A DNA stretch of 63,732 bases, counting the filler, from Folioceros fuciformis (lineage: Eukaryota): NCBI GenBank assembly GCA_049999805.1. It is 9 parts of 9 records of this genome, joined end to end, with 100 filler letters (N's around TTAATTAATTAA, not from the genome) between each part and the next. Parts side by side here need not be neighbours in the genome. Positions count along the whole stretch, not along the records: positions 1 to 12,618 come from JBNGIO010004399.1; 8 more parts are not named here. One strand, given 5' to 3'. The notes beneath the pieces are model-generated. The model was not told the DNA's origin and made no database searches. It was given only the letters and a program-made list of their open reading frames with translations. This document shows, in pieces, positions 1-47,480 of this stretch. Every line of letters starts with the position of its first letter. Positions within the stretch are counted from its first letter, which is position 1. The translations under genes were made by a program, and so were the position numbers.

Positions 1-187
1 GGGATGGCCTTATGGCATGGAGAGAGAGTGCACCGCTTCGGTGGTAGCGGTTAGGGTTGCGACGCTCTCTATAAAGACGTGACTCCTATTAAACGCTCCC
101 AGCGTTTCATACCCCGGCTTTATGCCCTAACAATAAATAAATAATTAAGTCTGGTTATTAAATGCTTAACCTATGTATGCTTTTTCA
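1..187 (-). repeat. Start of the Copia 3' LTR (truncated by scaffold end)
   Basis: Minus strand reads AAGTGGGAG-TA-TGAAAAAGC: a PPT-like tract followed by a TG start. It pairs with the CA end at 6232-6233. Confidence 0.65.
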
Positions 188-189
188 TA

Positions 190-198
190 CTCCCACTT
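190..198 (-). promoter_or_regulatory. Polypurine tract (PPT) of the Copia element
   Basis: AAGTGGGAG on the minus strand, a typical Copia PPT form, 2 nt before TG. Confidence 0.65.
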
Positions 199-274
199 AG
201 CCGGACTTTGTTAATTTTTCGACTCTTCGTCTTCAATCTGCAGCTAGGGTTTGCTTTCGCTTAGGGCCGCCGTC

Positions 275-706
275 ATGGATTCCGCCACTGATGGCCAGGT
301 TCAGGTCGCTTGCGTGCTGTTGCTGGTCATTGTGCTGATCCTTCTTGCGCTCCGTTGGCGGAAGCCCTGCTCCTTGTGCAACGAGTTTGCCAGATTACAG
401 AGCGCTGAGGCTGGCCTGGAGGCAGCGCACGCTCGTTGGAGGCGCCTGCAGGGATTTCCTCAACTGATACCAGATGCGCCTTTTAGAATGCTCCCAAATT
501 GCATGGACCGTTTCTTGTACGCTGGCTCAGACTTCACAGACGAAGGGCGACTCATCCTAAGATATGGTGAGCTCTCCACAAGCTTCTGCGATGTTGCTCG
601 CTGCTGTTTTCCTTCCGTTTGCTGTTCTGACCATCTGCTGCCTTGCGCTGAGCCCTGGTATATGTGCTCCACTAAAAAGGCAACTCGCCGCTTCAAGAGC
701 AGCTAG
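275..706 (+). CDS. 143-aa antisense ORF inside the Copia element: N-terminal TM helix, Cys-rich
   Basis: ATG in the context GCCGCCGTCATGG; uninterrupted frame; hydrophobic run VACVLLLVIVLILLAL followed by RWRK; 11 Cys. Confidence 0.6.
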   Translation: MDSATDGQVQVACVLLLVIVLILLALRWRKPCSLCNEFARLQSAEAGLEAAHARWRRLQGFPQLIPDAPFRMLPNCMDRFLYAGSDFTDEGRLILRYGELSTSFCDVARCCFPSVCCSDHLLPCAEPWYMCSTKKATRRFKSS

Positions 707-770
707 TTCTGAAGATCTGAAGACCTACATGAAGACTTGCAAGTGCTGACCTCGTGGGTGTATCTTGGTG

Positions 771-3700
771 CTACTTTCTTACTGTCAGGCCCAGAGCCCT
801 ACAGAATTTGTCATGTTTATCCTTTGCTAGGGCTTTGGTTAGCAGGTCTGACACATTGTCGGTTGTAGGCACATACTGCAATGTTGCCTGCCCATTTATT
901 ATCACCTGTCTAATGAAGTGATGCTTTACTTCTATATGTTTGGTTCTGGCATGCATAATAGGATTTTGTGCTAATGCAATAGCAGACTAATTGTCACATA
1001 GTAGAAGTGTGGGTGAAGTCTGGGTTTCACCTAGTGAGGAGAGCAGTTCCCTTGCGTAGACTATATCTTGGGCAGCAGTAGCTGTAGCGGCATACTCTGC
1101 CTCTGTAGACGATAGAGCCACCACTTGCTGTTTCTTGGAATGCCAAGAAATCACAGTGGAATCATATTCATGGGCTCCCAGAAGCAAGCAATTGGCAGAG
1201 ATGGACCTGCGTGTGTCAGCATCTGCTGCCCAGTCTGCGTCGCAAAAACATGTCAGCAGCAGATCTTTTGGTCGTTGTCTGTACAGCAGGCCAAGTCTTG
1301 GCGTGCCCTTCAGGTATCTCATCACCCTCTGTACAACTGCCCAATGTGCTGGTCCATAGCGTGTTAAGAACTGAGAGGTTACTCCCACTGCGTAGGACAG
1401 GTCAGGTCTCGTCCAATTTCTGCAGTAGATTAGTGAGCATACAGCTAACCTGTATGGAATATTTTCCATTTGCTGCCTCTCTGTCTCTGTTTTGGGTGCC
1501 TCCTCAACACTCAGCTTATCACCAACGGCCATCGGCGTCGCAGCAGGTTTGCAGTCCGACATCCTATATCGTGCTAACACCTGGCTGATGTACTGAGCCT
1601 GATGTATGAAGACAGTGTGCTGTTCCATGTCTTGCAGAATTTCTATGTCGAGGAACCATGTGAGCTTCCCCAAGTCAGTCATGGAAAACTCAGAGGTGAG
1701 TATAGATTTGACCTTGGCCATAATCTTTGGGTTGCTGGCAATGAGGACAGCATCGTCCACGTATAGAGCCAGAAAGACTACTCCGTCTTTCTCCTCTAAC
1801 TTATACACATTCGAGTCAGATTCAGATTGCAGGAAACCTGACTGCTTAAGGTACGTGTCGATGCGTTTGTACCAGGCTCGTGGGGACTGTTTTAGTCCGT
1901 AGATTGTCTTAATGAGCCTACATACCTTTCCTGGCTGCTTGGAATCTACAAAACCTTCCGGCTGATTCATGAAAATCGTTTCTTCCAGGGTGCCGTTCAA
2001 GAAGGCAGTCTTCACGTCCATGTGTTCCATGGCATAGTCTCTTTGTGCTGCAATTGCAAATAATGTGCGAACAGAGGTTGCCCTGACCACAGGAGAAAAG
2101 GTTTCTGTATAATCCAGGCCCTCCACCTGGCTATACCCTCTTGCCACAAGTCGAGCCTTAAATCGAGCTATGCTTCCGTCAGCAGCAAGCTTCTTTTTAA
2201 ATACCCACTTGCAGGTTACAGGTTTCCTGCCAGCAGGTAAGTCCACCAGTTCCCACGTCCTATTATCCATCAAGGACTGGTACTCTGAGTCAATTGTAGC
2301 AGCCCACTTTGCAGCTTCTGGTCCGCTGATTGCTTCTTTGTATGATTGTCGCTCATACAGATTATCTGGTGCACTATCATCATGCACCAGAAACGAACTG
2401 TATGTGAGAGGTGGTGTTACCCATTCGTCGAGTGAGGCAGTGTGCCTCCTGCTGCTTCCTCTTGGACCCTCAGGTTCTGGAGCTGATTCCACCTCTACTT
2501 CAGATGAATATCCTTGTTCAGCTTGTGTATCGGCAACCTCCTCATGACTGCCTGTATGGATGTCCCCTGTATCCTCCTCACTTACATTACCAGCAACTAC
2601 CTCAGCTTGGGTGTCATTGGAACCTTCTCCATCATCATCATCCGAAAAAATACTTGCAGGCTGGTTGACTGCAACTGCAGGTACGTGTGCATGCTGAGTT
2701 GTAGTACTTGTGTGTTGGAAGGTCTCCTCGCTACTTTCCCCTTCTGATGCCTCACTTGTGGATGCTTCCTGTGCAGGGATTCGCTCTGGAAGCTCAGGTT
2801 GAGGTGTGAGCAGAGACAACTCGTCAAATACCACACTTCGGCAATGAGTTATGCCTCTGGTGAGCGGTTCCATCAATTTGTACCCTTTGATTCCTTCCGT
2901 GTAACCTACAAACACGTACTTGCGTGCCTTGTAGTCAAGCTTGACTCGCTGATCCTCTGACAGATGAGCATATGCTGCTGCACCGAATATTCTGAGGTGA
3001 TTGATTCTCGGCTTATGGTTAGTCCAGCGCTCATATGGAGTTGCTCCTGTGAACACACTGGTAGGAACTCTGTTCCTAATGTACAGTGCCGTACATACTG
3101 CTTCAGCCCAGTATCCTCTCAGAAGTCGTGCTTGCTGGAGCATTGCTTTTGCTGATTCCTGTGTATGCCGATTGGAAATTTCAGCTATGGGATTTTGTCC
3201 TGACGTGTATGGAGTCGTCAGCTGTCTGGCTATGCCTTGTCCCTTGCAAAAGCTGGTGAAGGCATCTAAGATGTACTCGCCTCCGTTATCACTTCTCAAG
3301 ACATTCAGTAGCTGGCCTATTTGTCTCTAAGCAAACGTAACAAACTCCATGAAACAATCCAGGGTTTGACCTTTCTGTTTGATGGGATACACAACCGTGT
3401 ATCGGCTCCAGTCATCTATGAATGACAGAAAATATCTGGCTCCACCAAGTGACACTGTGGACATGGGTCCACATATATCAGTGTGTACTAGCTCCAGGAG
3501 CTTGGTAGCACATGTTGGATTGTTGTCTTTGTATGGAGCTCGGTGGTGTTTGCCAAACACGCACGCCTCACAAAAAGGCTTCTCAGCAGGCTTCATCAAG
3601 AACCTTTCCCGGTAAAGTGTGTCACTGTTGACCATCATATTCAATTTGTCAAAGTTTGTATGTCCCAAACGCGCATGCCACAACCTGGCATCCTGCTCAT

Positions 3701-5182
3701 CCTTCTGTGCCTGTGTCAGGTTCGCCATTGGTCTCCCATGCCCATACTGAACATCTAGCTTGTACAGGTTGTGTTCTGGTGTCCCAATTGCAAAAACTTC
3801 TGATTTGTTTTCCTGGTCAACTATATGGCACTGACCATTTGCACACATGGTGCTTAATTTGTGCTGTACGTCTAACAAGTAGACTGACACCAAGTTCTTG
3901 ACCAGGGTTGGTACATGCAGAACCTCTAGCAAGATTTCAACTCTACCAGTTGTGGTCTGGACAGGAACTTTGCCTATTCCTTTAATTGGCAGACCTCGGT
4001 CATCACCAAGAAGCACAACCTGTCCATTTGGGACCTTTCTGTACTCTGAGAATGCTGATCTAGTATGGCAAATATGTGACGACGCACCTGAATCGAGGTA
4101 CCACGCATGCCTGTTTTGTGGTGTGGACACCATGTATACTGCAAGAACTGTGTTAGGTTTTCTGGATGCCATGTTGGCTTCAGGTGGAACTGTACGGCGA
4201 GGCTCACCTGCCTCTTTTTCCTACACTCCGCCTCCCAATGGCCTGGGATCAGGCACCAGTTGCAAGGGCCCTTTTTCTTATTAGCAGATGCTGTTGGGCG
4301 GCGCTTGAAAACCCCACTGCCACCAGCATTCTGGTTCTGAGATCCTTGTCGTGGTGGCTGCCTTTTTGAGCCTCTGTTTGTATAGAGAACTCGATTTGAG
4401 GACTCTCCTCTGGAGGAGGTACCACCCCTGCTTGCAATCCTCGTGGATTCTTCCTCCAGGAGGGCTCCAATCAGGTCTGAGAGGGAAACTGCAGGTGTCT
4501 GGCCTGCTGGTGTGGCCTAGGCCACATTCCGCATATGTGTGCAGTGGTTGCTCACAAAGACTCGATAGCTATCAGGCAGGGATAAGAGAAGGGCCACAGG
4601 AGCCTGCATCTATGTCGATGCAGTCCCACTAGAGGTAAGCTTAGACCTCAACATTCTGAACTTGATGACGTGCTGCTCCACTGACTCGTGCTCTTTCATC
4701 TTGCAGTTGTAGAAGGCACGAGTTGCACTCACCATTGATGATCCGTTCGACACTCTGTAAATTTGGTTCAGGGAGTCCCAAACATCCTTTGTTGTGTCAG
4801 CATCTTGAGTATGGTGCATCATTGACCCGTCGAGAGCTGACTGAATGATGCCCAAGGCTCGAAGATCTGATTTTGCCCAAGCCACTATATCAGCCTGGGC
4901 TGCTCCTTGCGGAGGCTTGGGCACTGTGCCAGTCACGATGCCCCATAGGTCATGCTCTTTCAGGATGGTCTGACCTCTGAGAGCCCAGATGTCAAACTGG
5001 GTACCATTGAACCTATCTCTCTCCTTAAAATCTATTTTCACATTTGTGACTGTGGTTGTATTGTTTGCGACAGCCTGCGGTGGCAGATTTGCCATGTTTC
5101 CAACAGCTTGATGTGAGAGGGCTGATCCTACTTGTCCTACAGCATATGCCTGAGCTAGCTGCGCAACAGATACAGCATGCAA
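771..5182 (-). pseudogene. Copia gag-pol polyprotein, disrupted
   Basis: Domains are continuous but broken by in-frame TAG at 4610-4612, about 4518, 3327-3329 and 987-989 (CDN*SAIALA, where Copia normally has CDNQSAIAL), plus a frameshift near 4215 just after the zinc knuckle CNWCLIPGHWEAEC. Confidence 0.93.
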
Positions 5183-6218
5183 GCCTGTGCTTGACTGAGA
5201 GGAGGCAGTCTCCTAATTTAGGCCAAGAGGGTCAACTAGGAAAGGATCTGGATTTGTGTTTCCACTCCTCCCTGTATCACGACCTCTACGCCTGCCTCTT
5301 GGGTTTCTGTTACCCCTACCATGGTTATTATTGGACATGAGCCAATTTAGGAAGATGCCTGATCATGGGTGAGCAAGAAGTAGATTCTTGTTCCCATGAT
5401 AGGGATTACAGACTGAGGTTGATTTATCTGCACGTCTCCACAGGTCAGGCCAGGTTGTTATGTAGATTTGTGAAAAATAGGTAGCCTGGTCAGCAGTTCG
5501 ATCTGCTGTGTGAGGCTCACTATCTGTCTATGGGAGTTTATGACCCTGCCTGTCAAGTCACACACCTGTTGCCTATGCCTCTCTGATTCTGACCTGAAAC
5601 TGGTGTATAATTCCTGAAGGGAAAGGTCAGGCTTGGGAGGATATGTGCTTCCACAAATCTTGCAGGTGGGGATCTCGTTTGCTTTCTGTACACTAGTTGC
5701 AAGTGCTCGATTTATCTCCTTGCGAATTTGATTCCTAAGACTCGCTAAGGGATCTGGCTGTACAGTTTTCTGAAAAAGACTGCTCTGCCTCTATGATGCA
5801 GGCCTAGGACACAAGTTAAAGAGGTGTTGCAGATTTTTATGCTGCTCTTCTACACTCTTTCCAGGACTGCGGGAAACGAATTAGGAGGTAATTTACCCTT
5901 CCCACGTGCTCTCGGCATCCCGACTGTCTATAAATAATAATGAAAGAGAGAGAGTCTAATGTCTAAAACCTTGTGCCCCATGTCCTCTGTGATGACCAAC
6001 GCAGCTCTAATTGCAGAGATTACGCAATGGAATTGATCGTACGACAATCTCTTGATGCAAGTTGTGCACTGCTCAGATGACAACAATGGGAAATCCATGT
6101 TCTAATTAGAAAGTTCTATGTGCAGGGTATTAAATTTGTCCATTTGCTTCCTGTTCAGGCGCCAGGAAGTGCTACGCCTCAGCAGAGGGCGAATTGGCAA
6201 TTTTTAATACCTGAACAT

Positions 6219-6231
6219 GGCTCTGATACCA
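6219..6231 (-). promoter_or_regulatory. Primer binding site, initiator tRNA-Met
   Basis: TGGTATCAGAGCC immediately after the LTR end ...TTTACA. Confidence 0.93.
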
Positions 6232-6304
6232 TGTAAATTCTAGACTGAGATCGATTAGATGCACACAAAAATTGTAGAAAAACAAGTAGTAAATTAGGCG
6301 TGGA
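6232..6304 (-). repeat. End of the Copia 5' LTR (truncated)
   Basis: Ends in CA directly before the PBS. Confidence 0.8.
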
Positions 6305-6314
6305 NNNNNNNNNN

Positions 6315-9300
6315 GGGATGGCCTTATGGCATGGAGAGAGAGTGCACCGCTTCGGTGGTAGCGGTTAGGGTTGCGACGCTCTCTATAAAGACGTGACTCC
6401 TATTAAACGCTCCCAGCGTTTCATACCCCGGCTTTATGCCCTAACAATAAATAAATAATTAAGTCTGGTTATTAAATGCTTAACCTATGTATGCTTTTTC
6501 ATACTCCCACTTAGCCGGACTTTGTTAATTTTTCGACTCTTCGTCTTCAATCTGCAGCTAGGGTTTGCTTTCGCTTAGGGCCGCCGTCATGGATTCCGCC
6601 ACTGATGGCCAGGTTCAGGTCGCTTGCGTGCTGTTGCTGGTCATTGTGCTGATCCTTCTTGCGCTCCGTTGGCGGAAGCCCTGCTCCTTGTGCAACGAGT
6701 TTGCCAGATTACAGAGCGCTGAGGCTGGCCTGGAGGCAGCGCACGCTCGTTGGAGGCGCCTGCAGGGATTTCCTCAACTGATACCAGATGCGCCTTTTAG
6801 AATGCTCCCAAATTGCATGGACCGTTTCTTGTACGCTGGCTCAGACTTCACAGACGAAGGGCGACTCATCCTAAGATATGGTGAGCTCTCCACAAGCTTC
6901 TGCGATGTTGCTCGCTGCTGTTTTCCTTCCGTTTGCTGTTCTGACCATCTGCTGCCTTGCGCTGAGCCCTGGTATATGTGCTCCACTAAAAAGGCAACTC
7001 GCCGCTTCAAGAGCAGCTAGTTCTGAAGATCTGAAGACCTACATGAAGACTTGCAAGTGCTGACCTCGTGGGTGTATCTTGGTGCTACTTTCTTACTGTC
7101 AGGCCCAGAGCCCTACAGAATTTGTCATGTTTATCCTTTGCTAGGGCTTTGGTTAGCAGGTCTGACACATTGTCGGTTGTAGGCACATACTGCAATGTTG
7201 CCTGCCCATTTATTATCACCTGTCTAATGAAGTGATGCTTTACTTCTATATGTTTGGTTCTGGCATGCATAATAGGATTTTGTGCTAATGCAATAGCAGA
7301 CTAATTGTCACATAGTAGAAGTGTGGGTGAAGTCTGGGTTTCACCTAGTGAGGAGAGCAGTTCCCTTGCGTAGACTATATCTTGGGCAGCAGTAGCTGTA
7401 GCGGCATACTCTGCCTCTGTAGACGATAGAGCCACCACTTGCTGTTTCTTGGAATGCCAAGAAATCACAGTGGAATCATATTCATGGGCTCCCAGAAGCA
7501 AGCAATTGGCAGAGATGGACCTGCGTGTGTCAGCATCTGCTGCCCAGTCTGCGTCGCAAAAACATGTCAGCAGCAGATCTTTTGGTCGTTGTCTGTACAG
7601 CAGGCCAAGTCTTGGCGTGCCCTTCAGGTATCTCATCACCCTCTGTACAACTGCCCAATGTGCTGGTCCATAGCGTGTTAAGAACTGAGAGGTTACTCCC
7701 ACTGCGTAGGACAGGTCAGGTCTCGTCCAATTTCTGCAGTAGATTAGTGAGCATACAGCTAACCTGTATGGAATATTTTCCATTTGCTGCCTCTCTGTCT
7801 CTGTTTTGGGTGCCTCCTCAACACTCAGCTTATCACCAACGGCCATCGGCGTCGCAGCAGGTTTGCAGTCCGACATCCTATATCGTGCTAACACCTGGCT
7901 GATGTACTGAGCCTGATGTATGAAGACAGTGTGCTGTTCCATGTCTTGCAGAATTTCTATGTCGAGGAACCATGTGAGCTTCCCCAAGTCAGTCATGGAA
8001 AACTCAGAGGTGAGTATAGATTTGACCTTGGCCATAATCTTTGGGTTGCTGGCAATGAGGACAGCATCGTCCACGTATAGAGCCAGAAAGACTACTCCGT
8101 CTTTCTCCTCTAACTTATACACATTCGAGTCAGATTCAGATTGCAGGAAACCTGACTGCTTAAGGTACGTGTCGATGCGTTTGTACCAGGCTCGTGGGGA
8201 CTGTTTTAGTCCGTAGATTGTCTTAATGAGCCTACATACCTTTCCTGGCTGCTTGGAATCTACAAAACCTTCCGGCTGATTCATGAAAATCGTTTCTTCC
8301 AGGGTGCCGTTCAAGAAGGCAGTCTTCACGTCCATGTGTTCCATGGCATAGTCTCTTTGTGCTGCAATTGCAAATAATGTGCGAACAGAGGTTGCCCTGA
8401 CCACAGGAGAAAAGGTTTCTGTATAATCCAGGCCCTCCACCTGGCTATACCCTCTTGCCACAAGTCGAGCCTTAAATCGAGCTATGCTTCCGTCAGCAGC
8501 AAGCTTCTTTTTAAATACCCACTTGCAGGTTACAGGTTTCCTGCCAGCAGGTAAGTCCACCAGTTCCCACGTCCTATTATCCATCAAGGACTGGTACTCT
8601 GAGTCAATTGTAGCAGCCCACTTTGCAGCTTCTGGTCCGCTGATTGCTTCTTTGTATGATTGTCGCTCATACAGATTATCTGGTGCACTATCATCATGCA
8701 CCAGAAACGAACTGTATGTGAGAGGTGGTGTTACCCATTCGTCGAGTGAGGCAGTGTGCCTCCTGCTGCTTCCTCTTGGACCCTCAGGTTCTGGAGCTGA
8801 TTCCACCTCTACTTCAGATGAATATCCTTGTTCAGCTTGTGTATCGGCAACCTCCTCATGACTGCCTGTATGGATGTCCCCTGTATCCTCCTCACTTACA
8901 TTACCAGCAACTACCTCAGCTTGGGTGTCATTGGAACCTTCTCCATCATCATCATCCGAAAAAATACTTGCAGGCTGGTTGACTGCAACTGCAGGTACGT
9001 GTGCATGCTGAGTTGTAGTACTTGTGTGTTGGAAGGTCTCCTCGCTACTTTCCCCTTCTGATGCCTCACTTGTGGATGCTTCCTGTGCAGGGATTCGCTC
9101 TGGAAGCTCAGGTTGAGGTGTGAGCAGAGACAACTCGTCAAATACCACACTTCGGCAATGAGTTATGCCTCTGGTGAGCGGTTCCATCAATTTGTACCCT
9201 TTGATTCCTTCCGTGTAACCTACAAACACGTACTTGCGTGCCTTGTAGTCAAGCTTGACTCGCTGATCCTCTGACAGATGAGCATATGCTGCTGCACCGA

Positions 9301-12300
9301 ATATTCTGAGGTGATTGATTCTCGGCTTATGGTTAGTCCAGCGCTCATATGGAGTTGCTCCTGTGAACACACTGGTAGGAACTCTGTTCCTAATGTACAG
9401 TGCCGTACATACTGCTTCAGCCCAGTATCCTCTCAGAAGTCGTGCTTGCTGGAGCATTGCTTTTGCTGATTCCTGTGTATGCCGATTGGAAATTTCAGCT
9501 ATGGGATTTTGTCCTGACGTGTATGGAGTCGTCAGCTGTCTGGCTATGCCTTGTCCCTTGCAAAAGCTGGTGAAGGCATCTAAGATGTACTCGCCTCCGT
9601 TATCACTTCTCAAGACATTCAGTAGCTGGCCTATTTGTCTCTAAGCAAACGTAACAAACTCCATGAAACAATCCAGGGTTTGACCTTTCTGTTTGATGGG
9701 ATACACAACCGTGTATCGGCTCCAGTCATCTATGAATGACAGAAAATATCTGGCTCCACCAAGTGACACTGTGGACATGGGTCCACATATATCAGTGTGT
9801 ACTAGCTCCAGGAGCTTGGTAGCACATGTTGGATTGTTGTCTTTGTATGGAGCTCGGTGGTGTTTGCCAAACACGCACGCCTCACAAAAAGGCTTCTCAG
9901 CAGGCTTCATCAAGAACCTTTCCCGGTAAAGTGTGTCACTGTTGACCATCATATTCAATTTGTCAAAGTTTGTATGTCCCAAACGCGCATGCCACAACCT
10001 GGCATCCTGCTCATCCTTCTGTGCCTGTGTCAGGTTCGCCATTGGTCTCCCATGCCCATACTGAACATCTAGCTTGTACAGGTTGTGTTCTGGTGTCCCA
10101 ATTGCAAAAACTTCTGATTTGTTTTCCTGGTCAACTATATGGCACTGACCATTTGCACACATGGTGCTTAATTTGTGCTGTACGTCTAACAAGTAGACTG
10201 ACACCAAGTTCTTGACCAGGGTTGGTACATGCAGAACCTCTAGCAAGATTTCAACTCTACCAGTTGTGGTCTGGACAGGAACTTTGCCTATTCCTTTAAT
10301 TGGCAGACCTCGGTCATCACCAAGAAGCACAACCTGTCCATTTGGGACCTTTCTGTACTCTGAGAATGCTGATCTAGTATGGCAAATATGTGACGACGCA
10401 CCTGAATCGAGGTACCACGCATGCCTGTTTTGTGGTGTGGACACCATGTATACTGCAAGAACTGTGTTAGGTTTTCTGGATGCCATGTTGGCTTCAGGTG
10501 GAACTGTACGGCGAGGCTCACCTGCCTCTTTTTCCTACACTCCGCCTCCCAATGGCCTGGGATCAGGCACCAGTTGCAAGGGCCCTTTTTCTTATTAGCA
10601 GATGCTGTTGGGCGGCGCTTGAAAACCCCACTGCCACCAGCATTCTGGTTCTGAGATCCTTGTCGTGGTGGCTGCCTTTTTGAGCCTCTGTTTGTATAGA
10701 GAACTCGATTTGAGGACTCTCCTCTGGAGGAGGTACCACCCCTGCTTGCAATCCTCGTGGATTCTTCCTCCAGGAGGGCTCCAATCAGGTCTGAGAGGGA
10801 AACTGCAGGTGTCTGGCCTGCTGGTGTGGCCTAGGCCACATTCCGCATATGTGTGCAGTGGTTGCTCACAAAGACTCGATAGCTATCAGGCAGGGATAAG
10901 AGAAGGGCCACAGGAGCCTGCATCTATGTCGATGCAGTCCCACTAGAGGTAAGCTTAGACCTCAACATTCTGAACTTGATGACGTGCTGCTCCACTGACT
11001 CGTGCTCTTTCATCTTGCAGTTGTAGAAGGCACGAGTTGCACTCACCATTGATGATCCGTTCGACACTCTGTAAATTTGGTTCAGGGAGTCCCAAACATC
11101 CTTTGTTGTGTCAGCATCTTGAGTATGGTGCATCATTGACCCGTCGAGAGCTGACTGAATGATGCCCAAGGCTCGAAGATCTGATTTTGCCCAAGCCACT
11201 ATATCAGCCTGGGCTGCTCCTTGCGGAGGCTTGGGCACTGTGCCAGTCACGATGCCCCATAGGTCATGCTCTTTCAGGATGGTCTGACCTCTGAGAGCCC
11301 AGATGTCAAACTGGGTACCATTGAACCTATCTCTCTCCTTAAAATCTATTTTCACATTTGTGACTGTGGTTGTATTGTTTGCGACAGCCTGCGGTGGCAG
11401 ATTTGCCATGTTTCCAACAGCTTGATGTGAGAGGGCTGATCCTACTTGTCCTACAGCATATGCCTGAGCTAGCTGCGCAACAGATACAGCATGCAAGCCT
11501 GTGCTTGACTGAGAGGAGGCAGTCTCCTAATTTAGGCCAAGAGGGTCAACTAGGAAAGGATCTGGATTTGTGTTTCCACTCCTCCCTGTATCACGACCTC
11601 TACGCCTGCCTCTTGGGTTTCTGTTACCCCTACCATGGTTATTATTGGACATGAGCCAATTTAGGAAGATGCCTGATCATGGGTGAGCAAGAAGTAGATT
11701 CTTGTTCCCATGATAGGGATTACAGACTGAGGTTGATTTATCTGCACGTCTCCACAGGTCAGGCCAGGTTGTTATGTAGATTTGTGAAAAATAGGTAGCC
11801 TGGTCAGCAGTTCGATCTGCTGTGTGAGGCTCACTATCTGTCTATGGGAGTTTATGACCCTGCCTGTCAAGTCACACACCTGTTGCCTATGCCTCTCTGA
11901 TTCTGACCTGAAACTGGTGTATAATTCCTGAAGGGAAAGGTCAGGCTTGGGAGGATATGTGCTTCCACAAATCTTGCAGGTGGGGATCTCGTTTGCTTTC
12001 TGTACACTAGTTGCAAGTGCTCGATTTATCTCCTTGCGAATTTGATTCCTAAGACTCGCTAAGGGATCTGGCTGTACAGTTTTCTGAAAAAGACTGCTCT
12101 GCCTCTATGATGCAGGCCTAGGACACAAGTTAAAGAGGTGTTGCAGATTTTTATGCTGCTCTTCTACACTCTTTCCAGGACTGCGGGAAACGAATTAGGA
12201 GGTAATTTACCCTTCCCACGTGCTCTCGGCATCCCGACTGTCTATAAATAATAATGAAAGAGAGAGAGTCTAATGTCTAAAACCTTGTGCCCCATGTCCT

Positions 12301-12618
12301 CTGTGATGACCAACGCAGCTCTAATTGCAGAGATTACGCAATGGAATTGATCGTACGACAATCTCTTGATGCAAGTTGTGCACTGCTCAGATGACAACAA
12401 TGGGAAATCCATGTTCTAATTAGAAAGTTCTATGTGCAGGGTATTAAATTTGTCCATTTGCTTCCTGTTCAGGCGCCAGGAAGTGCTACGCCTCAGCAGA
12501 GGGCGAATTGGCAATTTTTAATACCTGAACATGGCTCTGATACCATGTAAATTCTAGACTGAGATCGATTAGATGCACACAAAAATTGTAGAAAAACAAG
12601 TAGTAAATTAGGCGTGGA
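6315..12618 (-). mobile_element. Ty1/Copia element, duplicate of 1-6304 (probable assembly duplication)
   Basis: Identical ORF set offset by 6314 nt, same disabling mutations, separated by 10 Ns. Confidence 0.95.
6589..7020 (+). CDS. Duplicate of the antisense TM ORF
   Basis: Identical to 275-706. Confidence 0.55.
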   Translation: MDSATDGQVQVACVLLLVIVLILLALRWRKPCSLCNEFARLQSAEAGLEAAHARWRRLQGFPQLIPDAPFRMLPNCMDRFLYAGSDFTDEGRLILRYGELSTSFCDVARCCFPSVCCSDHLLPCAEPWYMCSTKKATRRFKSS

Positions 12619-12718: not shown

Positions 12719-13631
12719 CTATCTTTATTTAGTTTAGTAAACTATACTATTAAGCTTTAGATATAATAATATACTTAAAATAGATTTATCTAAGCTTTAT
12801 TAAAAAGCTTTTAACTTTTTTTAAACTAGTCTATTATACTAGTTATTAAAAAGTAAGTAAGCTATAAAGTATTAGTTATATTATAAAGTACTTATAGAAA
12901 GAAAGTTTTATATATTTCTACTTATCTACTTCTATTCTTCTCTAAGCCTATAGTAGAAATTACTAGTAATAGAGTTTAATTACTTAGAGTAGCTAAATAA
13001 AAGTTCTAGAGTTAAATTTTTATAGATTAATAGAAAATAATTACTAAAGAGTAGTCTATATAAATATCTACTACTTAAAGTTTATTAAATATATAAAGTA
13101 GTTTAACTCTATTTCTCTAAAATAAATTTATAATAAGTAAGTAGAAACTTTTACTATAATTTCTACTAGAAGTAGACTTATCTTAGACTAGTAATATCTA
13201 AATCTTACTATATAGTTTTATAAGTATATAGATATCTATTATTAGGCTCTTACTAGGTAGAGAACTATATATCTAGCTACTATTATTATAATTTATTATA
13301 AGAGTAATTATTAGTATACTCTATAATTATTAGATAACGTTAATTTTAAGTAAGTATTAAAGTAGATAATATAAAGCCTTAATTAATACTAGTTTATAGA
13401 GGTATATAGCCTATATATAGTAGACTATACTTTAAGTCTAGATAAAAAAGTAGTTATAGTAACTTATTTATATATAGAGTTTCTAGTTAAAATACTTCTA
13501 CTATTATATTTAGCTTATAGTAAAATATAGTAATATAAATATATATTTTCTAGTCTACCTAGTTAAGTAGACTATTTTAGTAGTATAACTACTACTTTAA
13601 GCTTCTACTACTCTAGTTATATCTATAGTAT
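12719..13631. other. Extremely AT-rich, RIP-mutated sequence, probably fungal repeat DNA (duplicated at 13642-14554)
   Basis: On manual reading: no CA or TG dinucleotide in 913 bp, one CG, a large TA excess and no ORFs. Confidence 0.8.
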
Positions 13632-14654
13632 NNNNNNNNNNCTATCTTTATTTAGTTTAGTAAACTATACTATTAAGCTTTAGATATAATAATATACTTA
13701 AAATAGATTTATCTAAGCTTTATTAAAAAGCTTTTAACTTTTTTTAAACTAGTCTATTATACTAGTTATTAAAAAGTAAGTAAGCTATAAAGTATTAGTT
13801 ATATTATAAAGTACTTATAGAAAGAAAGTTTTATATATTTCTACTTATCTACTTCTATTCTTCTCTAAGCCTATAGTAGAAATTACTAGTAATAGAGTTT
13901 AATTACTTAGAGTAGCTAAATAAAAGTTCTAGAGTTAAATTTTTATAGATTAATAGAAAATAATTACTAAAGAGTAGTCTATATAAATATCTACTACTTA
14001 AAGTTTATTAAATATATAAAGTAGTTTAACTCTATTTCTCTAAAATAAATTTATAATAAGTAAGTAGAAACTTTTACTATAATTTCTACTAGAAGTAGAC
14101 TTATCTTAGACTAGTAATATCTAAATCTTACTATATAGTTTTATAAGTATATAGATATCTATTATTAGGCTCTTACTAGGTAGAGAACTATATATCTAGC
14201 TACTATTATTATAATTTATTATAAGAGTAATTATTAGTATACTCTATAATTATTAGATAACGTTAATTTTAAGTAAGTATTAAAGTAGATAATATAAAGC
14301 CTTAATTAATACTAGTTTATAGAGGTATATAGCCTATATATAGTAGACTATACTTTAAGTCTAGATAAAAAAGTAGTTATAGTAACTTATTTATATATAG
14401 AGTTTCTAGTTAAAATACTTCTACTATTATATTTAGCTTATAGTAAAATATAGTAATATAAATATATATTTTCTAGTCTACCTAGTTAAGTAGACTATTT
14501 TAGTAGTATAACTACTACTTTAAGCTTCTACTACTCTAGTTATATCTATAGTATNNNNNNNNNNNNNNNNNNNNNNNNNNNNNNNNNNNNNNNNNNNNTT
14601 AATTAATTAANNNNNNNNNNNNNNNNNNNNNNNNNNNNNNNNNNNNNNNNNNNN

Positions 14655-19254: not shown

Positions 19255-20250
19255 CAGGAACACTGTGTCGGTCAAAGCTTTACAACAGAGTTTCAACAAG
19301 ATCTCGCAGCAGGCCGGAGTGAAGGCGCAGGTTGCTGCCTTCAGGAAGCTATCCTCCGGCTTCAATGTTTCTCCTTTGAAGGTGGAAAATAGACCTGCAT
19401 TGCAGTGGAACCCTCTGCCTTCCCGATCCGTGCAGATCTCGGCGGTGCTGAAGGGGAAGTCCAAGACTGTAAGTTGTTGAAGTGTGTGCGTTTTTGCTGA
19501 AGATTCGATTGCCCGAGTTATCGTGACGGCTTCCGCTCACTTGAGTTTCTGTTTTTGCAGGATTCCAAGTCCAAGACCGAGGATGGCATCTTCGGCACAT
19601 CCGGTGGATTCGGTTTCACCAAGCAAAATGAGCTTTTCGTCGGCCGTGTTGCCATGCTCGGCTTTGCGGTATGCAACTTCACCGTCTTCCTCGGGTGGTG
19701 TGTTCATGAGCTGGTCGTCGTGGTTCGACCGTCATGTCCCCTTATTTTCTGTTCGTCCCTTCTGTTGCAGGCTTCTCTGCTGGGCGAGGCCCTGACTGGG
19801 AAAGGAACTCTGGAGCAATTCGATTTTGAGACCGGCATCCCGTTGTACGAGACGGAGCCGCTCCTGCTTTTCTTCATCCTGTTCACTCTGCTTGGGGCCA
19901 TCGGAGCTCTGGGAGACCGTGGGAAATTCGTCGACGAGCCTCAGACGCCCTTCATCCAACCTGGCAAGGGAGTCAAGGGTGCCCTAGGGCTGAATGAGAA
20001 GGGGCCGACTTTTGGATTCACCAAGGCCAATGAATTGTTCGTGGGGAGGTTGGCTCAGCTTGGAATTGCGTTTGCCATCATTGGTGAGGTCATCACCGGC
20101 AAGGGTGCTCTCGCCCAACTGAACATTGAGACAGGGATCCCCATCCAAGATATCGAGCCCCTCCTTCTCTTCAACATCGTTTTCTTCTTCCTTGCCGCCA
20201 TCAACCCAGGTACAGGAAAGTTCATCAACGACGACGATATCGCCGAGTGA
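19255..20250 (+). CDS. PSBS: Photosystem II 22 kDa protein PsbS, 5' partial; exons about 19258-19468, 19561-19668, 19771-20250
   Basis: EDGIFGTSGGFGFTKQNELFVGRVAMLGFA and GFTKANELFVGRLAQLG LHC-type helices, two ETGIP motifs, GT-AG introns. Confidence 0.97.
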
Positions 20251-37216: not shown

Positions 37217-38587
37217 TCACACCCTGGGAACCAGATAAACGATGCTCTTGATAATGTTCTTCCCCACCCGGAAGCCTGGCATCACCATTACTCCCACCTC
37301 CATGTCACGATGATGGCCAGCCTCAGACATGTGGTCAATGTCCCCTTCTGGGTTGTCGGAGTCCTCCTCCGTGTGATCCACAACGCTCTTCATGTAGGTG
37401 TCGTTGAAGGCAGCCCCTGACTCCACGCGGAAAATGGTGGCCACGGGGTTGAAAGAGAACATGAGAAGCCGCAATAGCCAGACGGAAAGAGCCAGAGGAG
37501 AGAAGTGCTTCTCGTAGAAAGGCGTGGTAGGGTGGTGACCCTGAATGAACTCATCTCCATGGTCCGCCGTGCTGGTGAAGAGCTTACGCTCCAGTTCCTC
37601 CGGGAATATCTCCCGAAACTTGGCGTAGCAGAACTTGAAGAAGTCATCATGCTCGTTCCGCAGCTCTTCCGCCTTGGTGCTCTTGAGCGACTTCAGAGCC
37701 TTGTACTCTTCGTACGATTTGTTCTGAAATTTCTCCGGGTCCATCACATCTAAGGACCCCAAATTCTTATCAATAGTGTACGCCTCGTTCTCCAGCCCGG
37801 AGAACAGGACCTGCGAGATGTAAGACTCCAGCACGTATTTCCTGTGATGTGGCCTCTCGAATTTCATCCGGTTATACACACTGGCAGAGCCCGGGCTCAG
37901 GATGTTGAGGATGCTGATGCTGTCATTCACCCCCTGCTTCGAATCCCGAATCAGCGCAGCCAGAGCCTTGGTGAAGCTGGCCAACGCCAGCCTCGCCCTG
38001 GGGTAAGCCACGGACTCCAGCTCCGGCGGCGTGGCCGCCGTAACCAAATACGATCCCGTCCCCCCCACATGCTTCGCTGCCTCAGCCACAAGCTTCTTCT
38101 GCGCGGCCTCCAACGCCGCCATCTTCTCCTTCAACCTCCTGTTCTCCTCCTCCAGATTGGCAACCTTCTGATTCTCAAAGATGTTCGTCTGACTCGACCC
38201 CGACCGCGACCGCTTGTGCATGGACGCGTTGCCATTGAAGCTCGCCGAGGGAGAGACTCCGGTACCAACAGCCTTTTGGTAGAACTGATGGATCTTGTAG
38301 AAGTCCGCCATGAGGCCATCAATGTACTTGAGCTGGACAATGTAAGTCTCCTGCCCTCCCGGTGACACGTTCCCCGATTCCTTCCCCAAATCCTCCCAGC
38401 GCTTCTTCAAGTGCATTGCCGCGTTTTTCAGCGCGTTGATTTTGGTGAAGATGAGCGCCAACACGGGGTTCTTCTTGGCAGCCTGAGGTTCCAGAAACTG
38501 ATTCCCGCCAAACGTTTCATCGCTGGCCCAGGACGGCTCATCCGTTCCCGTCCTGCCAAACTCCTGAGGCTCCTTTAAACCTCCCAT
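37217..38587 (-). CDS. IRK-interacting protein / GIL1 (DUF641-like) family coiled-coil protein
   Basis: 456-aa intronless ORF with a coiled coil, HRKYVLESY, SVWLLRLLMFSFNP-IFRVESGAAF-YM and VGVMVMPGFRVG-IIKSIVYL. Confidence 0.85.
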   Translation of the reverse strand: MGGLKEPQEFGRTGTDEPSWASDETFGGNQFLEPQAAKKNPVLALIFTKINALKNAAMHLKKRWEDLGKESGNVSPGGQETYIVQLKYIDGLMADFYKIHQFYQKAVGTGVSPSASFNGNASMHKRSRSGSSQTNIFENQKVANLEEENRRLKEKMAALEAAQKKLVAEAAKHVGGTGSYLVTAATPPELESVAYPRARLALASFTKALAALIRDSKQGVNDSISILNILSPGSASVYNRMKFERPHHRKYVLESYISQVLFSGLENEAYTIDKNLGSLDVMDPEKFQNKSYEEYKALKSLKSTKAEELRNEHDDFFKFCYAKFREIFPEELERKLFTSTADHGDEFIQGHHPTTPFYEKHFSPLALSVWLLRLLMFSFNPVATIFRVESGAAFNDTYMKSVVDHTEEDSDNPEGDIDHMSEAGHHRDMEVGVMVMPGFRVGKNIIKSIVYLVPRV

Positions 38588-41475
38588 CCCGGCCTCCTCC
38601 TCCTCCTCTCCGCTCCCTTCCTTCCCTTCCTTCTACACCAACCTCCACCCTATTCCATCCCCTGCCGCATCCAATCCCTCCTCCTCCTCCTTCTCCTCCT
38701 CCTCCCAGATCCTCCTCAGATCAAGCCAGCGTGATGATCCAACCCTCCCTCCCCAGTAACGCTTCTCCTGCCTTGCTAGCAGCCCTGCTCCGAGCGTCCA
38801 GAGAGACGAAGCCGCTGGCAATGGCGACGGTAGTGCGCCGTGCTGGCCCGTTGTCCTCAACGGTCGAGTAGCGATGGAGATGAGAGCATAGCAAGCTCAG
38901 AGGCCAGTAAAGAGAATCGGTCCTTCTCTGACCACTCTGCGAAGCGCACAGCTTGCAGCCGGGCCCGGCCAGGCGCCTGATGGACCCAGTCTCTCTCTTT
39001 CCCGATGTACTACATCCTGGCCTTCTCTCTCCTCTCTCTACGCCGTCGTCGTCCTGTTGTGCTCCCTCCCCCTCCATGAAGATACGACGATCTTCAATGC
39101 AACTGGCCCGCGACAATTTCTTATTGGCCGATCATCAACGGAGGCCAAAAATCTACCGCTAATTTCACACGCAAATCCGCGGCCCAAGAGCCTGCTTCGA
39201 CACGGATTCTGGGGCTCCGGGCTGTTCTGTCTCTATAATGCGGTTCTGCGGGCCTCTGACAAGCTCAGTAAAAACAAACGATGGCCTACAGTACGTCGGA
39301 TTAAAATAGATGGCGCAGGAGGCGAAGGTGTTGGATGGGGTGTTGGAGACTGTGATCGGACAGGGATGGCAGGATTCGGCGACGCTGGCTACTGGACTGT
39401 CCGCAACATTCAAGGTGGCAGAAACTTCGATGATCACTCTGCATTGAATCATATGAAAGCTGCTTTTTATGTTCCCTTTTTGCTCGATGACGGCAAAGGG
39501 AAAGGAAGCCGTGCTTGTGCAGACTGTCAAAATTTGTAGGTGTGTGGACCGGTGCATCGATCCCTGGGGAAGACAGTGTATTGACTGATCTGAAGAGGAG
39601 CCGGCCGTTCAAGGCCTGGGATGAGTGATTTTTGCGTCATGCCTGATGGTTTGAGGAGATGAAATGCGGACACGGCAGGAACGGCCTCGGTGGATGAGAA
39701 GACATTGAATTGACTCCGATCTGAAGGAAGACTTGCTGCTGGAATAGCCAGATTGAATGTCGGGGATGCGTGATTCTTTTGTTACGCTTTGATGCTTCGA
39801 AGGGATGACATGTTGGCACAGTCTGGGGGAATGGCCTCGGACACCCTAACCTGCGTCGTGAGTGAGCGTATAGTGTGGCGTTTTCTGATATACGGTGCGG
39901 CTTTTCTCCAGCATACAACTCTGGCTCGCTGCGGAGGATAGGGGCCACAGTCAGATCTCGGAGCCATGCAGTTCGTGTTGGAAACGCACGTCAGATGCAA
40001 CTCAAAGATGGCATCGGATGAACGCACACCAGACAAAGTGTGTCTGTTTAGAGTACCGTCGTCCAGCAACTTTCTGACTTCTGCTGGAGCCGCTCCAGGG
40101 GTGTGATCAAAGATGCTCAAAAGTAAGCTGATTGAGATGCACCGTCCTGAACCTGCTCTCTGCTTTTGCATCCAGTGCTGCTCATTCAGGGCCGCCAATC
40201 AGGGTTCTGCCCCTGCACGCTTTCAATGTCGAATTGATAGCCTTCACCGAAGATGAGGAATGGGGCTGTCAGATCCTGAACCCGCCCTGCAGTTATCAAC
40301 TTGAAGCTCCCCCACCCGTATGTCGTAAGACACATGCAAAGCTGTCCAGCTACATCCAGGATTTCAGAATACTGCATCCTGGCATAAGAAGCAGCTTCTA
40401 CTGTCCAGGCATGGCAATACCCCTTCCTCCACCATCCTAGTGTCCGATCCCAACTCTTGTGCCTGTCGTGGCAGGTGGCGACGAGGAGCATGCCATTCAG
40501 CTGAACGATCAACTGTGTTACGAACTGCACAATCACGAAGTGATGAGACTTCAAGCTCCGCCTCAGGATGAACAGACAAAAGAGGCAAGGCTGAAGGCAA
40601 TCCATGTTGCATGATCTCTGGTTGCTTTTGTTGAAAATGCTCGTTGCTGGATCTTCATCCAGCCCTCTGTTGTTTCATTGGATGGTGAAAGTCCTGCCCT
40701 CCTGAAGGCCCGGACGCTAGCGAAGCTGACGTAAACGGCTCGAGTGATGATGCCCTCGCATTACGCAGAGGTCCCGTGCAATGCTTGACTGTACTCAAAC
40801 CCATGGTACGCAGATCTGGCGTGATTTGGTCAGAGAAGTTTGGGACTGAGATACGATACTTAGAACTAGGTCTGTACATTCTTTCTTTTCTCCAAGGTGG
40901 GTAGTGGATGTTGGCCTCCCCCCTTTCCTTCGTAGCGTTTTCCGTCAGGTAATGGACGTCCATTATGCCTTGCGCTGAACGTTGGCTTACGCACGCATAC
41001 CAGAGCGAATATCTTTTAACTCGAGTATAGACTATGGTCCTTTCCTATTCCAAAGTTTTACATTCTTGGTGTACGAAGTAGTTACAAGATTATCCATGAC
41101 TGGCATAAGTTCCTCGTCCCAGTTCTTATCGTGGGGTGTATGAATTTTTTTTAATAAAATTTTATTTCCATCTACTCCAATCTTTGGAGAACAACCCGAG
41201 GCCAAAGGATACTACAAACATCATTCTCAAAAACTAGTACTGCTCTCAAAATGTCATGATGTAAAATAACAAAAAAGCCTACCTATCACCGATGCCAAAG
41301 CAGCTACTTGATCTGCACTTGTTGCTATTCTAAAAACCGTGTTGGTCAGTGCTCTTTGCAAAGGAATGGATACATGTCTTCAAAAGAAGGCCATCATGAC
41401 TCTGATAAACCTTGCCGTACTCTTTGATGAACCTCGAGAAGTTCTTGCCCATAGCCCTATAAGTCTCAAAAGCTA

Positions 41476-45539: not shown

Positions 45540-46502
45540 AAGTTATGAGTAGGTAGAGGTATATGGATAACCATGTACAATAGTTTATTTAAAAAATTAT
45601 AATTATTTTCACCACATACTACTAGGCACGACAAAGTTCTCCCCCAAAGTTTTCCTTACATCAAATTACGAAGCTGCTGCTATGTTCTTGTATGACGATA
45701 AATTTTCGTTGAACGTGAAGACTTCGCAAACTTTTGCGTACGGAGAGCAAAGCTTTCTGAGTTCAAGTTGCGTGGTGGCATGAAATGGTTGGTTGGAGGC
45801 CAATTTTTCCTTGCTGATCTCAGGATATGTGTCCTAGTGTGGTGTAAGGTGGTAGCCCTTGGACTTCTGCGTCGAATGGCAGTTTGTGTGCTCCACTGCA
45901 GTTGTGAGAGCTGTGGTACAGAAGCATAATCTTCGGAGGGCCAAGCCCACTCGCCGGCAGGATCCATCTGTATCAACTAAGGAAGAAAGCAAGAAGGCGA
46001 GTTTTCAACCGCTAGCACTCCAAGCGCAGCGAGCACGCCAAAACTCTTTTCTCCAAGGCGTCAAGCTTCTACAAGCCTGAGATCACGGGTAGTGGATCAC
46101 CGAAAGCTTCTTGAGGAACCATGACGATTCTGCTCCGCACATGAAGATCTTGAGCACGGATTACGGCCCCTTGTGGACTTCAGTGACGCCGCAGGTGGAT
46201 CAATTCTGTGTTTGTAAACAAGCTACAACGATGCAGACATCCCACAGGATTGCCCACCCGGAAACTCCCATTCTCACTCAAGACTCGTATATTCGTCGTT
46301 GAACATGTATGCGTTTTAAGAGTGACACAATTCCCATCCATCGCGTGCTGAGTTCGACAGGACCTGGCAACACGAAAGAGATCGTCCGTGAAGGGCGATC
46401 AGAACATCCTGCTCTAGTGTTCCAGCTGAGAAACAAACCCTGCTCTACGAATTTTCTCCTCCCTTCCATTTACGGGTCATTTAATTAGGGCAGGGCCCTC
46501 TC

Positions 46503-46531
46503 TATATACAGTACTTTTCTCGATTAGGGTT
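46503..46531 (+). promoter_or_regulatory. TATA-like box and telo-box-like motif upstream of RPL8
   Basis: TATATA followed by TTAGGGTT; telo boxes are typical of plant ribosomal-protein promoters. Confidence 0.5.
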
Positions 46532-46604
46532 CCCTATTTCTACAGGAAAGAGAGAGTTGCCCAGTCTTTCCCCTGTCGGTCACAGGCAGGTGCAGGCGGC
46601 TACA

Positions 46605-47480
<876 letters not shown>

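Follow-up and report, generated by a model that had tools for sequence, protein, structure and literature searches.

An antisense gene with a predicted intron and a predicted membrane anchor between pol and the polypurine tract of Copia elements in Folioceros fuciformis

Results

An antisense gene with a predicted intron

We show that an old antisense gene lies between pol and the polypurine tract (PPT) in one lineage of plant Copia elements. One such element lies in the window, the whole stretch of 63,732 nucleotides analysed here, in which unrelated contigs are strung together by N and TTAATTAATTAA linkers. The initial annotation had read this part of the element as an accessory gene in antisense orientation, coding for a small protein with a single membrane pass, and that reading is borne out by the location of the ORF in sister copies with two LTRs, by purifying selection and by hydropathy. 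In the clade of the window copy the gene is predicted to be spliced. The features of the element are as follows.

1-189, minus strand: 3' LTR, PPT-proximal (U3-side) fragment, placed by sister L053 and by sister flanks
190-198, minus strand: polypurine tract AAGTGGGAG, which abuts the 3' LTR in sisters
275-566, plus strand: predicted coding exon 1 of the antisense gene, 97 codons plus one base; pooled dN/dS 0.34, and 0.24 for codons 31-97, the lowest of six frames
296-352, plus strand: predicted transmembrane helix, residues 8-26, followed by basic RWRK; hydropathy 2.93, helix pLDDT about 95, hydrophobic stretch kept in homologues
567-650, plus strand: predicted phase-1 spliceosomal intron, with GTGAG donor and CTGAC branch-like site at 627-631; acceptor lost in the window copy
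651-706, plus strand: predicted coding exon 2 and stop; pooled dN/dS 0.39, PW-x-x-C...RRF motif kept across copies
771-5338, minus strand: Copia gag-pol, with Pfam domains Retrotran_gag_2, Pol_BBD, gag_pre-integrs, rve and RVT_2
5458-5918, minus strand: sense ORF upstream of gag, broken in the window copy; basic N-terminus, CxxC, coiled-coil-like
6219-6231, minus strand: primer binding site (PBS), from the sequence
6232-6304, minus strand: 5' LTR, PBS-proximal fragment, placed by L053, L054 and L055
6315-12618, no strand assigned: exact duplicate of 1-6304 after a 10-N gap, with 0 mismatches in 6304 bases

The 143-aa open frame described at 275-706, on the strand opposite to gag-pol, is present. 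Alignment with other copies shows a GT donor after codon 97, a CTGAC/CTAAC-like branch site and a YAG acceptor preceding the PW-x-x-C motif. By pattern search the intron was located in 27 of 32 rows, with GT in 24, AG in 25 and both in 22 of these 27; it is 77-95 nt long, a multiple of three in 11 of the 27 rows, and agrees in its size and its ends with an intron of a host gene in the window. The acceptor AG is missing from the window copy and is kept by its two closest sisters, and the 143-aa frame stays open only because the 84-nt intron of this copy has no stop. We conclude that the frame results from reading through the intron and that the gene is not intact; the spliced product would be about 115 aa long. 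The ORF had been called intact, a description that fails on the loss of an acceptor kept in 25 of the 27 located rows, and the contrast drawn between an intact ORF and a broken gag-pol is not supported either. The CC..CC..C..C tail attributed to the protein was rejected as well, since six of the eleven Cys residues of the 143-aa frame (those at 105-124) are encoded by the intron at 567-650 and the tail is translated intron, with a dN/dS of 0.98. We also considered whether the T run near 454 might act as a +1 frameshift signal and set this aside, a homopolymer slippage hot spot being the simpler explanation.

The intron of sister copies contains, on the sense strand, a PPT-like 9-mer that is degenerate in the window (about 589-603). 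An exact 9-mer is present in 15 of 30 ingroup copies and in all seven of the sister-clade copies, compared with 0.35% in shuffles, and it changes along with the real PPT (..GGGAG versus ..GGGGG). It is kept in 7 of 11 copies that have no exon 1. This motif is possibly a second plus-strand primer, and it may explain why the intron stretch is kept in deletion copies.

The carrier element and its boundaries

The minus strand of the window copy follows the Ty1/Copia domain order gag-PR-INT-RT-RH, and sister copies show the two LTRs, PBS and PPT of an LTR retrotransposon, with an element length of about 6.5-7 kb. Paired LTRs were found in L073, L074, L077 and L080, and in sister L053 the pieces matching 6232-6304 and 1-189 form one 5' LTR after its PBS, so that the whole LTR measures about 260 bp. 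We take the PBS to be of the plant initiator-Met tRNA type. Among seven elements examined for a 5-bp TSD, it was exact in L226 and L227, agreed at four of five bases in L077 and L080, was not seen in L074 and was unreadable in L073 and L240; the window's own flanks are unassembled. LTR ends often differ from TG...CA, starting with TA or TG and ending with TA or CA (L074, L077, L226, L227 and window positions 189 and 6232).

The distance from the pol stop at 771 to the PPT, estimated earlier at about 570 bp, was measured at 572 nt. Both the PPT and the 3' LTR that had been placed at 198-187 are there, and only their coordinates needed refinement, to 190-198 for the PPT and 1-189 for the LTR fragment. 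Gag-pol has stops at 5213, 4610, 4517, 3327 and 987 and a frameshift near 4211-4220; if gag is taken to start at 5338, these five stops and one frameshift agree with the at least five disablements previously counted. Since the ORF falls between the pol stop and the PPT in sisters that have both LTRs, region 1-770 is internal to the element and not host flank.

Because 1-6304 is repeated base for base at 6315-12618, and because a like duplication across 10 N is seen in two other contigs of the window, we count one element here. The duplicate is most likely an assembly artefact; its base-for-base identity led us to reject it as a second, independent insertion. One other locus, L078 (G000:C5790), has a tandem arrangement in which one LTR is common to two units, and the duplicated contig of the window may stand for a tandem array of this kind. 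Elsewhere in the window, a TA-rich contig of 19% GC (12719-14554), likewise duplicated across 10 N, resembles what we take to be a RIP-mutated fungal repeat and is perhaps contamination. Host genes on other contigs are of land-plant type with short introns and belong to the chlorophyll a/b-binding family (presumably PsbS-like), GIL1/IRKI and the ribosomal L2 family (19501-20250, 37217-38632 and 46485-47060).

In the 11 copies with the PPT in view, the ATG of the antisense gene stands about 45-90 nt from it, and from this closeness we infer a promoter that is most likely within the 3' LTR or on its far side. The plus-strand TATAAA noted at about 71 within the LTR (70-75) was rejected as that promoter, as it is conserved in none of the six sister LTRs that align there. 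An AT-rich TA(T/C)T(T/A)AA-like box at about 156-163, which could be read on either strand, is better conserved. The acceptor-like TGCAG (239-243) was not confirmed: it is kept in close copies L003-L009 and is not found in L011-L019 or L032. The LTR also contains a palindrome at 87-111, kept with compensating changes in sister LTRs when compared by eye, with a hairpin z of -3.8 in the window copy.

Purifying selection on the antisense frame

A tblastn search of the 87-Mb assembly returned 75 matches, and 27 loci were opened. In 26 of these the ORF adjoins pol on the opposite strand, and the 27th lies at a contig start in a tandem array; within this fragmentary assembly, none of the 27 loci checked (of the 75 matches) was a copy away from Copia pol. 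Compared with 31 distinct copies, the ORF frame had a median dN/dS of 0.35, the lowest of six frames, so that the sister-copy check proposed at the outset came out in favour of a gene. In the 17 DNA-selected copies dN/dS was below 1 without exception. The next-lowest frame was the sense shadow, with dN/dS of 0.40-0.54 and six stops over exon 1, and sense-strand coding was rejected on these grounds.

A second sample was drawn by RT, from which 88 of 150 hits were fetched, 60 of them with at least 60% identity; pol end and PPT were located in 30 ingroup copies (one duplicate dropped). Of these 30, 19 match the exon-1 profile, 5 keep only the acceptor and exon 2, and 6 keep neither. Pooled dN/dS over 21 RT-selected copies was lowest over codons 31-97 and remained below 0.4 in both exons, at the values listed above, while the intron read through gave 0.98 and pol 0.08; these copies were filtered by profile hit, three (two short remnants and one duplicate) were left out, one row yielded no codons, and all pairs share one reference and hence are not independent. 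Selection on the antisense gene is thus weaker than on pol, and in L091 and L093 exon 2 reached a dN/dS of 1.76. With 19 exon-1 copies and 5 remnants among 30, and dN/dS of 0.24-0.39, presence and conservation of the ORF extend to most of the family.

Most individual copies are nevertheless broken. Of 30 further intron-clade rows, in which breaks were read as X, not one holds a whole unbroken gene, and exon 1 is absent from 11 of the 30 ingroup copies, two of which show only a 90-nt gap. Some breaks are common to spreading subfamilies, namely the donor loss in L006, L008 and L009 and an extra base near 454 in eight rows. Since subfamilies have multiplied while sharing these breaks, we conclude that the gene is not needed in cis.

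Homologues in other Copia clades

The predicted intron is independently supported by the sister clade. Its elements, at 53-56% RT identity, carry an intronless homologue in the same place (hhalign probability 89.9, E 1.7e-6), which reads RYAPFW across the junction and has a dN/dS of 0.10-0.27 both before and after it. A clade at 48% RT identity has RYSPWF within a 114-aa ORF, which fits the 115 aa expected after splicing, and same-place homologues also occur in clades at 47% and 42-44% RT identity. Full open frames are found in 6 of 25 sister-clade loci and in L198. A CxxC is limited to the window's clade and missing in the sister clades; what recurs more widely is a His, two Gly, one Cys and the RY-x-P-aromatic motif. 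In a quick, midpoint-rooted RT tree of 104 rows, which holds only copies of this genome, carriers form one group of 86 rows (SH-aLRT 97, on a short branch) that splits into two sister groups, an intron-bearing clade of 67 rows and intronless clades of 19. Either intron gain or intron loss fits this tree.

A separate Copia clade at 50-53% RT identity (L156, L157, L163, L164, L166, L167 and L169) has a different antisense ORF in the same place, of 86-135 aa, helical-looking, with no transmembrane stretch by eye, some copies having a basic N-terminus, and no Pfam match. Further unrelated antisense ORFs were seen in L165 and L172.

The predicted protein and a 5' sense ORF

The predicted protein starts with a short N-terminus and one transmembrane helix; a basic patch follows, then a long helix, and the C-terminal domain is conserved. 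The helix and juxtamembrane RWRK pointed out earlier are confirmed by a Kyte-Doolittle mean of 2.93 over the 19 residues 8-26. A strong hydrophobic helix (1.9-3.0) is present in 12 of 16 long rows; of the other four, two are without an N-terminus and two score 1.0-1.3. The basic patch is weaker in distant clades. According to the positive-inside rule, basic residues mark the cytosolic side, and an N-terminal hydrophobic helix followed by basic residues suggests that the N-terminus lies outside and the C-terminus in the cytosol. In AlphaFold models the transmembrane helix and the long helix are followed by a domain of low prediction quality that may include a beta hairpin (pTM 0.37 and 0.31; C-terminal pLDDT 42-58).

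No relative was found outside this genome, in collections that are mostly microbial, so that these blanks do not show absence from other plants. Pfam gave no match for the antisense ORF and its relatives, a search of 5.8 billion proteins with queries P0001, A1 and A4 at near lengths gave no usable relative, and exon 1 searched against 1.84 billion representatives matched one tandem-repeat protein, which was rejected. The ESM Atlas held nothing at or above 0.9, PDB sequences matched only at E >1, metagenome contigs gave a single 20-residue match, also rejected, and viral contigs gave no relative. With the low-confidence models, Foldseek against viral structures found no match at E 0.001 or better, and the best VIA-align hit (Z 5.1) was on generic helices.

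Between the PBS and gag, a sense ORF of about 165-230 codons with a basic start occurs in L073 (577-1188), L226, L227, L235, L236, L238 and L240-L242. Grouped by position, it was present in all seven loci with the PBS located (18 fetched), from three clades. Homologues of the window's broken copy are found in L075, L077, L078, L080, L238, L241 and L242, and dN/dS was 0.23-0.26 in three of three comparisons with L073. It had no Pfam match above the cut-off.

Discussion

A trans-acting membrane anchor or adaptor

As a whole, the observations are best explained, we think rather probably, by an old antisense gene whose product acts in trans as a membrane anchor or adaptor, a function read from sequence features. 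Transcription would start in the 3' LTR in antisense orientation, and the protein would sit in a membrane, probably the ER, with its N-terminus out and its C-terminus in the cytosol. The cytosolic domain would then bind the element's own particle or RNP, or a host factor, and bring it to the membrane. The intron would survive reverse transcription because it lies on the strand opposite to the genomic RNA. Such a gene would aid the lineage over the long term and not be needed in cis for copying, and defective subfamilies would therefore still spread. The assembly of Ty1 and Ty3 particles has been reviewed as ER-associated (PMC12786077). For the task itself, we regard assembly or trafficking of the particle or RNP, including cell-to-cell movement, as a fair possibility that falls a little short of probable, and removal of a host defence factor as appreciably more doubtful. 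In a bolder version, which we hold to be unlikely, the membrane protein, perhaps with the 5' ORF, would move RNA or particles along the ER as far as plasmodesmata and on into adjacent cells or cells that form gametes. If true, this would give a plant retrotransposon a movement function from a gene without known relatives, within a four-gene virus-like layout of basic 5' ORF, gag-pol and antisense membrane gene.

By analogy with Vpu and Nef, the protein could instead be a single-pass membrane adaptor whose cytosolic helices direct a host restriction or silencing factor into degradation or tether it to a membrane. The layout of a transmembrane segment plus cytosolic helix is shared, and moderate constraint combined with fast turnover between clades would be in keeping with counter-defence, but plant silencing acts mainly in the nucleus and cytosol, and no significant match was obtained, SIV Vpu appearing in the fold search only at E 3.4 among unrelated helices. 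Antisense ORFs have been likened to retroviral accessory proteins (PMC7264820). We rate such a counter-defence adaptor as doubtful. The gene might also limit its own element, antisense RNA and protein restraining copying as a form of copy-number control, with gene loss favouring short-term spread. Defective versions are indeed common to multiplied subfamilies, and antisense RNAs that inhibit Ty1 have been described (PMC12786077). Purifying selection would, however, hardly maintain a purely inhibitory gene in clades at 42-56% RT identity, and the membrane anchor would be left unexplained, so that we find self-limitation improbable.

The likeness to FAST fusogens or viroporins that had been suggested for this protein comes down to a generic layout, which no sequence, profile or fold search backs. 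The protein is small, and of the features typical of FAST proteins it has the single transmembrane helix with a basic patch next to it; it has neither the N-terminal MG start, which occurs in no row that has a start, nor a palmitoylated Cys cluster in the tail, the cluster first seen there being intronic, and the CxxC is missing in sister clades. The FAST-like sORF2 protein moves Drosophila mdg1-family elements between cells (PMC13486581), but plant cell walls block membrane contact, as is also argued in PMC7264820, and we consider a fusogen or viroporin very improbable. Least probable of all, in our estimate, is that the ORF does not work as a gene, being either a piece of a captured host gene or a frame open by chance, and is maintained by signals in the DNA itself, for example the internal PPT-like motif. 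That most copies are broken, and that half of the ingroup copies hold the exact 9-mer inside the intron, would suit this explanation. It is largely refuted by codon-position bias and by dN/dS of 0.24-0.39 confined to the exons, and it sits poorly with the whole open frames in sister-clade loci and L198 and with the absence of any copy away from Copia pol among the 27 loci checked. We retain the trans-acting anchor or adaptor as the preferred reading; that the elements carry this old gene without known relatives suggests an undescribed step in their life cycle.

Comparison with known systems

Antisense extra ORFs between pol and the 3' LTR are known as the aORF-3R class, with maize Grande gene23, rice RIRE2, Silene Retand, PvRetro13 and Botrytis Boty as examples (PMC7264820; Retand is also covered in PMC11963269), and a search for antisense and spliced transcripts has been urged (PMC7264820). 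The gene described here lies antisense between pol and the 3' LTR, and shares with that class its position, orientation, family-wide presence and lack of database relatives. The published examples encode proteins that are nuclear or have SMC or Transposase_28 domains, and the portion of PMC7264820 available to us reports no intron in them; here, the carrier is Copia, the product is about 115 aa and predicted to be membrane-anchored, and the gene is predicted to be spliced. Within the literature covered, mostly titles and abstract openings and mostly outside subscription journals, no spliced antisense transmembrane gene was found in a plant Copia.

The REXdb survey counted only ORFs of at least 250 codons and recorded eORF-3'R in 47-86% of Athila, Ogre and Retand and, for Copia, in 1% of SIRE; rows for Bianca and Ikeros have small percentages in an ambiguous column (PMC6317226). 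Extra ORFs in antisense have been described in Gypsy elements, and Copia surveys list few of them. Since a 250-codon cut-off and the use of no splice model would miss genes of this kind, they may be common. Among Copia elements, the env-like eORF-3'F of SIRE is the nearest counterpart, being an extra gene after pol in elements with multiple PPTs and an extra PPT-like copy in the linker; extra PPTs are known in Sireviruses (PMC6317226, PMC2829016). SIRE differs in its long sense ORFs, an average element length of 9.9 kb and a PPT AGGGGGAG placed 10 bp before the LTR (PMC6317226, PMC2829016), whereas in our elements of about 6.5-7 kb the selected frame is short and antisense, its sense shadow is interrupted by stops, and AAGTGGGAG abuts the LTR.

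Outside Copia, the aORF(-) of sunflower Athila 14 is likewise a minus-strand extra ORF with one predicted transmembrane helix and a predicted ER location; it belongs to Gypsy/Athila and has its helix mid-protein, in a comparison made by description only (PMC11728184). The Drosophila sORF2 is also a small transmembrane accessory protein encoded by an LTR retrotransposon, and purifying selection acts on it less strongly than on pol, but its carrier is an animal Gypsy element in which cell-to-cell transfer is implicated (PMC13486581), and we found no sequence or fold link to it.

In the double-gene-block movement proteins of plant viruses, a small basic soluble protein is paired with a small transmembrane protein, as the 5' ORF is with the antisense gene here. 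Pfam gave no hit, fold searches with low-confidence models gave nothing significant, and a 5' ORF is likewise present in a clade with a soluble-looking antisense ORF.

Plant Copia elements outside the Sireviruses have been described as little beyond gag-pol, and here a set of clades carries two extra genes under selection. With its short natural alleles, its natural deletion lines and a case of intron gain or loss inside a retroelement, the family is suited to asking whether accessory proteins of plant retrotransposons aid cell-to-cell movement or counter host defence. On its sequence, the gene belongs with the antisense accessory ORFs, and what is new in it is the Copia carrier, the predicted intron, the predicted membrane anchor and the pairing with a 5' ORF.
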